A stretch of DNA of 64,000 nt from Escherichia coli (GTDB lineage Bacteria > Pseudomonadota > Gammaproteobacteria > Enterobacterales > Enterobacteriaceae). Below the pieces are notes generated by a model that did not search any database, had not been told where the DNA came from, and saw only the letters and a program-made list of their open reading frames with translations. Shown in pieces: positions 11,259-12,362 of this stretch. Numbering within the stretch: position 1 is the first letter of the stretch; every line of letters begins with the position of its first letter. The DNA lies in NCBI RefSeq assembly GCF_036507355.1, contig NZ_AP027877.1. One strand, 5' to 3'. The translations under genes were made by a program, and so were the position numbers.

Positions 11259-12362
11259 ATGAAAGTTAAAGTACTGTCCCTCCTGGTCCCAGCTCTGCTG
11301 GTAGCAGGCGCAGCAAACGCTGCTGAAGTTTACAACAAAGACGGCAACAAATTAGATCTGTACGGTAAAGTAGACGGCCTGCACTATTTCTCTGACGACA
11401 AGTCTGTAGATGGCGACCAGACCTACATGCGTCTTGGCTTCAAAGGTGAAACTCAGGTTACTGACCAACTGACCGGTTACGGCCAGTGGGAATATCAGAT
11501 CCAGGGCAACGCTCCGGAAAGCGAAAACAACTCCTGGACCCGTGTGGCATTCGCAGGTCTGAAATTCCAGGATGTAGGTTCTTTCGACTACGGTCGTAAC
11601 TACGGCGTTGTTTACGACGTAACTTCCTGGACCGACGTACTGCCAGAATTCGGTGGTGACACCTACGGTTCTGACAACTTCATGCAGCAGCGTGGTAACG
11701 GCTTCGCGACCTACCGTAACACTGACTTCTTCGGTCTGGTTGACGGCCTGAACTTTGCTGTTCAGTACCAGGGTACCAACGGCAGCGTAAGCGGTGAAGA
11801 TCAGACCAACAATGGTCGTGGTGCTCTGCGTCAGAACGGCGACGGCGTTGGCGGATCTATCACTTATGATTACGAAGGCTTTGGTATCGGTGGTGCGATC
11901 TCCAGCTCCAAACGTACCTGGGATCAGAACAACACTGGTCTGATCGGTACTGGCGACCGTGCTGAAACCTACACTGGTGGTCTGAAATACGACGCTAACA
12001 ACATCTACCTGGCTGCTCAGTACACCCAGACCTACAACGCAACTCGCGTAGGTTCCTTGGGTTGGGCGAACAAAGCACAGAACTTCGAAGCTGTTGCTCA
12101 GTACCAGTTCGACTTTGGTCTGCGTCCGTCCCTGGCTTACCTGCAGTCTAAAGGTAAAAACCTGGGTGTCATCAATGGTCGTAACTACGACGACGAAGAT
12201 ATCCTGAAATATGTTGATGTTGGTGCAACCTACTACTTCAACAAAAACATGTCCACCTACGTTGACTACAAAATCAACCTGCTGGACGACAACCAGTTCA
12301 CTCGTGACGCTGGCATCAACACTGATAACATCGTAGCTCTGGGTCTGGTTTACCAGTTCTAA
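11259..12362 (+). CDS. ompC: outer membrane porin OmpC (367 aa), loop sequences apparently not the K-12 allele
   Basis: ORF track; signal peptide, conserved barrel strands and C-terminal ...LGLVYQF; strong codon bias. Confidence 0.93.

Follow-up and report, generated by a model that had tools for sequence, protein, structure and literature searches.

A surface-altered ompC allele, very probably a mosaic of known loop cassettes, in a non-K-12 lineage of Escherichia coli

The usual explanation for variation in the external loops of the porin OmpC is diversifying or frequency-dependent selection exerted by phages, colicins, antibodies and the toxins of contact-dependent inhibition systems. [quoted passage not shown] Recognition by CdiA-EC536 is decided by L4 and L5, and an L4 of the c class combined with an a11 L5 can be recognized by CdiA-EC536 in a chimera (PMC5056734). 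Phages T4 and PP01 likewise discriminate OmpC alleles, via L4, L5 and L7 (PMC5221442; PMC12892980). T4 is unable to use the OmpC of O157 (Washizaki et al, 2016; PMC5221442), and its adsorption needs a phenylalanine in L4, a requirement for which the evidence consists partly of those authors' unpublished data (PMC5221442). In phage PP01, gp38 contacts Ser225 and Pro226 in L5 and Val304 to Arg308 in L7, and the GVIN of L7 is required for adsorption of the phage to O157 OmpC (2026 mBio article; PMC12892980).

The window, by which we mean the whole 64-kb stretch of DNA analyzed here, carries ompC as a single uninterrupted ORF together with the following neighbors and flanking elements.

7848-10520, minus strand: rcsD, neighbor of ompC
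10832-10925, minus strand: the small RNA gene micF, divergent from ompC (Rfam RF00033, 116.8 bits against a gathering score of 79)
10844-11258, plus strand: the 415-bp upstream region of ompC (promoter and 5' UTR), with zero differences from MG1655 in an intergenic alignment
11259-12362, plus strand: ompC, intact, 367 codons and a stop codon
12381-12406, plus strand: intrinsic terminator of ompC, an 8-bp stem (AAAGGGCC/GGCCCTTT) followed by a T run
12474-13529, plus strand: apbE (ftp), downstream neighbor of ompC

We consider it very probable that this gene is the intact chromosomal ompC of a non-K-12 E. coli lineage, at its normal place, and that its allele, which is altered only at the cell surface, is a mosaic of loop cassettes. 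Residues 22-367 of the product match solved OmpC chains, with 2xe1 (E = 1e-220) and 9wcb (E = 9e-220) scoring best and K-12 2j1n following (E = 2e-208), and the product matches Pfam PF00267 (Porin_1) with E = 1.5e-139. From the full mature-length matches to solved OmpC chains, a 16-stranded β-barrel trimer is predicted as its near-certain fold. The hallmarks of OmpC, namely the Sec signal peptide, an L3 with PEFGG, and the aromatic C terminus ending in VYQF, are present, and residues 1-46, 115-140, and 310-367 have the same amino acids as in K-12.

In the noncoding surroundings of the gene, the 738-bp spacer between rcsD and ompC has 11 SNPs relative to K-12, all within 10623-10843. One of them, at 10843, is the sole SNP in micF, where it turns a G-U wobble pair of the terminator stem into a G-C pair, and the other 10 (10623-10793) are located between micF and rcsD. 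The 111-bp spacer between ompC and apbE has 1 SNP relative to K-12, at 12370. Opposite ompC, an antisense open frame of 356 aa (11352-12422, minus strand) has a low-complexity translation rich in V, T and G; it is a mechanical by-product of the codon usage of ompC, with no sign of a gene.

As reference for the loops we used the MG1655 ompC product (b2215; NP_416719), aligned to the OmpC of the window, with loop limits from the crystal-structure-based alignment in S1 Fig of Beck et al (2016; PMC5056734). An AlphaFold2 model of our own, built from a 16-sequence alignment of near-identical alleles, reached a mean pLDDT of 28.8 and a pTM of 0.19 and was unusable, and the loops were therefore mapped from the published crystal-based limits and from matches to solved structures. 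The two proteins are 95% identical, with 19 replacements and two 4-residue indels, and the corresponding DNA alignment has 78 differing columns. The window lacks the K-12 segment GFTS in L4 and has an insertion of GVIN in L7; these indels cancel, so that both proteins have 367 aa. All 19 replacements lie inside L1, L2, L4, L5 and L7, which comprise 64 of the 367 residues (hypergeometric P = 3e-16). No amino-acid change relative to K-12 was found in the signal peptide, the strands, the periplasmic turns, L3, L6, L8, or the C-terminal VYQF. The changed loops and the constriction loop are arranged along the gene as follows.

11391-11411, plus strand: loop L1, codons 45-51, SDDKSVD where K-12 has SDNKDVD; 2 replacements, at codons 47 and 49 (D47N and S49D when read from window to K-12)
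11502-11531, plus strand: loop L2, codons 82-91, QGNSAENENN in K-12; 3 replacements, at codons 85, 86, and 88
11601-11678, plus strand: constriction loop L3, codons 115-140, amino acids as in K-12, with a single synonymous change at codon 119
11775-11831, plus strand: loop L4, codons 173-191, 6 replacements and no GFTS; changes in codons 173-188
11913-11957, plus strand: loop L5, codons 219-233, 7 replacements; changes in codons 221-231
12159-12197, plus strand: loop L7, codons 301-313, GVIN insertion and N309 where K-12 has G; changes in codons 303-309

A preliminary description of this DNA had proposed that the surface loops differ from those of K-12 while the barrel and termini are canonical, and the alignment agrees with it on both points: the changes fall in the five external loops, and no residue outside the external loops is replaced. 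The five window loop strings that it quoted are all present in the translation of 11259-12362, the K-12 strings that it gave, GKNGNPSGEGFTSGVTNNGRDALRQ and KRTDAQNTAAYIGNGDR, are exactly as in MG1655 b2215, and identity to K-12 across the loops is at odds with the 19 replacements and two indels.

Silent sites set the middle of the gene apart from its surroundings. In Nei-Gojobori estimates against K-12, ompC outside the external loops has a dN of 0 and a dS of 0.055, the latter on par with the neighboring genes rcsD, rcsC, apbE, and ada (dN 0.001-0.006, dS 0.033-0.066), while the external loops have a dN of 0.16 and a dS of 0.29. For codons 173-231, which run from L4 to L5, dN is 0.17 and dS is 0.49, a silent divergence ~10 times the background of 0.03-0.07 (Fisher test for the L4-L5 segment versus the rest of ompC, p = 3e-8). 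The strands β9 and β10 between L4 and L5 are unchanged in amino-acid sequence (dN 0) and nevertheless have a dS of 0.32 (Fisher test versus other non-loop codons, p = 1e-3). Because the silent excess reaches these unchanged strands, L4-L5 is best read as an old, separately evolving haplotype and not as a product of recent point mutations. In 500-bp windows, DNA identity to K-12 falls to 89.6-91.4% over the center of ompC (11501-12250), against a mean of 98.4% (SD 1.6%) for the 64 kb, which places it among the two lowest-identity spots of the whole stretch. The pairwise dN/dS of the loops is 0.55, that is, not above 1, and the case for positive selection therefore rests on the literature and is not demonstrated by the comparison with K-12.

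Each changed loop is a variant known from other E. coli. L1 is of the type found in the OmpC of 536, CFT073, F11, and EC869, and L2 is of the type found in 536, CFT073, and A35H. In S2 Table of the published catalogue, L4 corresponds verbatim to allele c15 (isolate B185, WP_000865579.1), L5 to allele a11, the CFT073 type, and L7 to allele e, the EC869/O157 type (PMC5056734). The combination c15/a11/e is OmpC type 99, from strain B185 (PMC5056734). The exact 367-aa protein (BED21697.1 and others) is already public on 7 contigs, with displayed names that all read E. coli porin OmpC, and three of the contigs with this protein are 99.98% identical to window positions 1259-22362 over 18-21 kb. Nothing here is thus new, neither the phenomenon nor the loop variants nor the exact protein, and in a chromosome that is 1.5-2% diverged from K-12 around the gene, loops unlike those of K-12 are to be expected.

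To place the allele among its relatives, we searched 5426 complete RefSeq E. coli genomes. The exact five-loop combination occurs in 0 of the 5426, and the L4-L5 DNA haplotype is present at an identity of at least 99.5% in 5 of them (~0.1%), with the next-best match at 94%. The window allele and three relatives compare as follows.

Window allele: L1 DKS; L2 APES; L4/L5/L7 c15/a11/e
Strain 48 allele (98.6%, best match): L1 NKD (K-12 type); L2 SAEN (K-12 type); L4/L5/L7 as in the window
GF3-3 allele: L1 NKD (K-12 type); L2 APES; L4/L5/L7 as in the window
SCU-485 allele: L1 DKS; L2 SAEN (K-12 type); other L4 and L5, L7 as in the window

Between them these alleles hold all four of the four possible combinations of L1 and L2 types, and the types are set apart by multi-nucleotide patches, at nucleotides 139-146 and 253-263 of the gene. 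Reassortment by recombination is the simple explanation of these combinations. Given the dS excess in L4-L5 and the presence of all loop-type combinations among related alleles, we infer an old polymorphism reshuffled by recombination and not recent mutation. The allele would then consist of loop cassettes that are old and deeply diverged, brought together as a mosaic by intragenic homologous recombination. Some detail lies outside this process: the first 342 nt of ompC match complete RefSeq genomes at 99.1% at best, and none at 100%, so the allele has a few private SNPs that recombination leaves unexplained. A more specific proposal is that the five-loop set, with L1 and L2 of CFT073 type and the rare c15/a11/e, is a recent intragenic recombinant through which an uncommon lineage acquired a receptor profile of its own, being insensitive, for instance, to T4-, PP01-, and CdiA-EC536-type ligands at once. 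We offer this tentatively, as a possibility that we doubt somewhat more than we believe; if true, it would add one more case of the known modular diversification of OmpC and no new mechanism.

The confinement of replacements to exposed loops would also fit recent de novo mutations selected on a K-12-like allele, whether through phage escape, within a host, or under antibiotics, and so would the rarity of the L4 variant c15 and of an L4-L5 haplotype found in ~0.1% of complete genomes. However, the ~10-fold silent excess in L4-L5 extends into strands whose amino acids are unchanged, and each of the loop variants turns up again, differently combined, in alleles unrelated to this one. Antibiotic selection usually acts on L3, which lines the pore, and in the window this loop is unchanged. 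A recent mutational origin of the loops was rejected on the silent-site divergence, and we rate it as very unlikely. It is harder still to credit a chimeric assembly or an ORF that encodes a porin paralogue (OmpF, PhoE, OmpN, or a porin of prophage origin), an idea to which the median of 2 places similar to the ompC query in E. coli genomes lends some color. The order rcsD-micF-ompC-apbE is the same in MG1655, and the NCBIfam profile NF007841 ('porin OmpC') scores 763.8 bits over residues 1-367 (cut-off 484), whereas the sister-porin profiles for OmpF (479.7; cut-off 583) and PhoE (456; cut-off 599) stay below theirs. The same sequence is, in addition, present on 7 independent contigs. Context, profile scores, and these contigs rule out a paralogue or an assembly artifact, and the reading that we retain is a mosaic allele of ompC at its native locus.

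The strain background can be judged from the rest of the window, which is collinear with MG1655 2,259,011-2,324,007 at an identity of only 98.0-98.5%. The preliminary description had deduced a non-MG1655 background from the OmpC loops, a stop in atoS, and an IS1 in yejO. That deduction is upheld; the divergence of 1.5-2% by itself proves it far more strongly than the OmpC loops do, and the window should not be annotated as MG1655. In atoS, CAG is changed to TAG at codon 255 of 608 (3201-3203, minus strand), and in related contigs atoS is annotated as a pair of ORFs (254 and 322 aa), the same split as in the window. The IS1, of ~768 bp and with typical terminal inverted repeats, lies at ~33489-34253 inside yejO, where MG1655 has an IS5K ~160 bp from the window IS1 site; because the two sites are ~160 bp apart, this autotransporter pseudogene evidently received its insertions in separate events, with a different IS element in each lineage. 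The same description had called the synteny identical, which is correct for collinearity but not for the IS elements or for the eco-mqo spacer, in which a ~113-bp repeat is present once in the window (18941-19044) and as five tandem copies in MG1655 (2304503-2304955), which are ~86% identical to the window copy. Among the 5426 complete RefSeq E. coli genomes, the best identity is 99.4% for the left flank, 98.5% for the right flank, and 99.2% for 36-60 kb, with L26, 23CRST011, and Combat11I9 as the nearest complete genomes over several segments. Judging from these identities, the source lineage is a non-K-12 one that is uncommon and poorly represented among finished E. coli genomes. Those ceilings (99.2-99.4% in the flanks and 98.5% in the right flank), found in a searched set without Shigella, together with the IS1 in yejO and the nonsense mutation in atoS, could also be taken as signs of a Shigella or enteroinvasive origin of the window, with an OmpC allele of Shigella type. 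Against this, the low figure of 98.5% for the right flank is due to one local patch in yojI, the 64 kb contain one IS element only, with gene content otherwise intact and collinear, and the displayed names of the exact-protein database copies are all Escherichia coli. Where the preliminary description had left the source as E. coli or Shigella, E. coli is the better call, because this label is carried by every database copy of the exact protein; a Shigella source is improbable.

The yojI patch itself spans 16300-17150 (~850 bp), covering the 3' third of yojI (15393-17036, plus strand) and the beginning of the spacer that separates yojI from mqo. It is ~10% diverged from MG1655, mostly through silent differences, with 8 amino-acid changes in YojI. 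Over 16200-17500, the best of the 5426 complete E. coli genomes reaches 95.9%, 5417 genomes lie at 90-95%, and FDAARGOS_943 shares only the part of the patch at 16900-17150. The patch has the look of DNA acquired through homologous recombination from a source outside mainstream E. coli, and it is more unusual than the ompC allele. For its donor, a search for exact 22-mers in one genome of each species gave no match, and a degenerate codon pattern was far too promiscuous, reflecting an ABC-ATPase motif, with one Escherichia locus among the matches listed; this locus, from E. albertii, is only 86% identical to the patch. Further dips to 94-96% identity with MG1655 occur at 30001-30500, 43501-44250, and 48501-49250. 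By coordinate mapping, these three dips fall in ccmF, bcr, and the yejA/yejB junction, and they may be additional recombination patches.

The product of this ompC would be a trimeric, 16-stranded general porin in which variation is restricted to the cell-surface loops L1, L2, L4, L5, and L7. Because the barrel, L3, and the 415 bp upstream are those of K-12, as is the signal peptide, the gene should resemble that of K-12 in its OmpR/MicF-linked control of expression and in the pore properties of its product; the upstream stretch at 10844-11258 is one that we take, from established knowledge of K-12, to hold the OmpR boxes and the promoter. The expected consequence of the allele is a changed receptor and antigen specificity with unaltered transport. 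L4 of the window is without the GFTS segment that holds the phenylalanine required by T4, and by analogy with O157 OmpC this loss should abolish use of the protein by wild-type T4. With respect to the PP01 determinant, the GVIN of L7 matches, whereas L5 differs, having NTGL in place of SPLY and not being of the a6 type; use of the protein by PP01 is accordingly predicted to be weak or absent. The view taken in the preliminary description, that OmpC loops are a hotspot for differences between alleles and determine receptor specificity, is in line with the Beck catalogue and with the literature on CdiA-EC536, T4, and PP01. The OmpC of the window should consequently not be assumed to be K-12-like as a receptor for T4, PP01, class II CdiA toxins, colicins, or antibodies. 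With 0 replacements outside the exposed loops, a silent excess in L4-L5, and reassorted cassettes, the locus provides a clean worked example of ompC variation, and it leaves current understanding unchanged.

Of the described OmpC proteins, that of B185 and strain 48 (WP_000865579.1, the protein annotated in strain 48) is the nearest relative in the complete genomes: L3, L4, L5, L7, the barrel, and the length of 367 aa are those of the window, and its DNA is 98.6% identical to the window ompC, the top value among the 5426. It differs in L1 and L2, which are of K-12 type (NKD and SAEN) where the window has the CFT073/536 type (DKS and APES), and strain 48 and the window are separated by 5 amino-acid differences in two patches and by 6 scattered silent SNPs. 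K-12 MG1655 OmpC (PDB 2J1N) shares with the window the locus, length, signal peptide, strands, L3, L6, L8, and C terminus. The OmpC of uropathogenic CFT073 (PDB 2XE1), the best-scoring solved structure, has the same L1, L2, and L5 as the window. In contrast, its L4 is of type b1 and 8 residues longer (ENDPDFTGHGI...K), its L7 has VVAG where the window has VING, and it differs by conservative changes in the barrel and L8 (V106I, I210V, G212A, I214V, L292V, D350A, and N357D). The O157:H7-type OmpC (PDB 9WCB; c2/a6/e) shares its length, L1, and L7 (GVING) with the window, and its L4 is of the short c class, with 4 positions that differ from the window (K/T, GM/DQ, and E/G), but its L2 (SAEN) and L5 (DDQNSPLYIGN) are both unlike those of the window. 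The common 375-aa E. coli allele P0003 (272 contigs), which combines an L4 of the H299 type, b2, with a11 and e, equals the window protein except in L4, which is 8 residues longer (QNGSVSGESDPDFTGHGITNNGRK), and at two residues (V106I and F109I).
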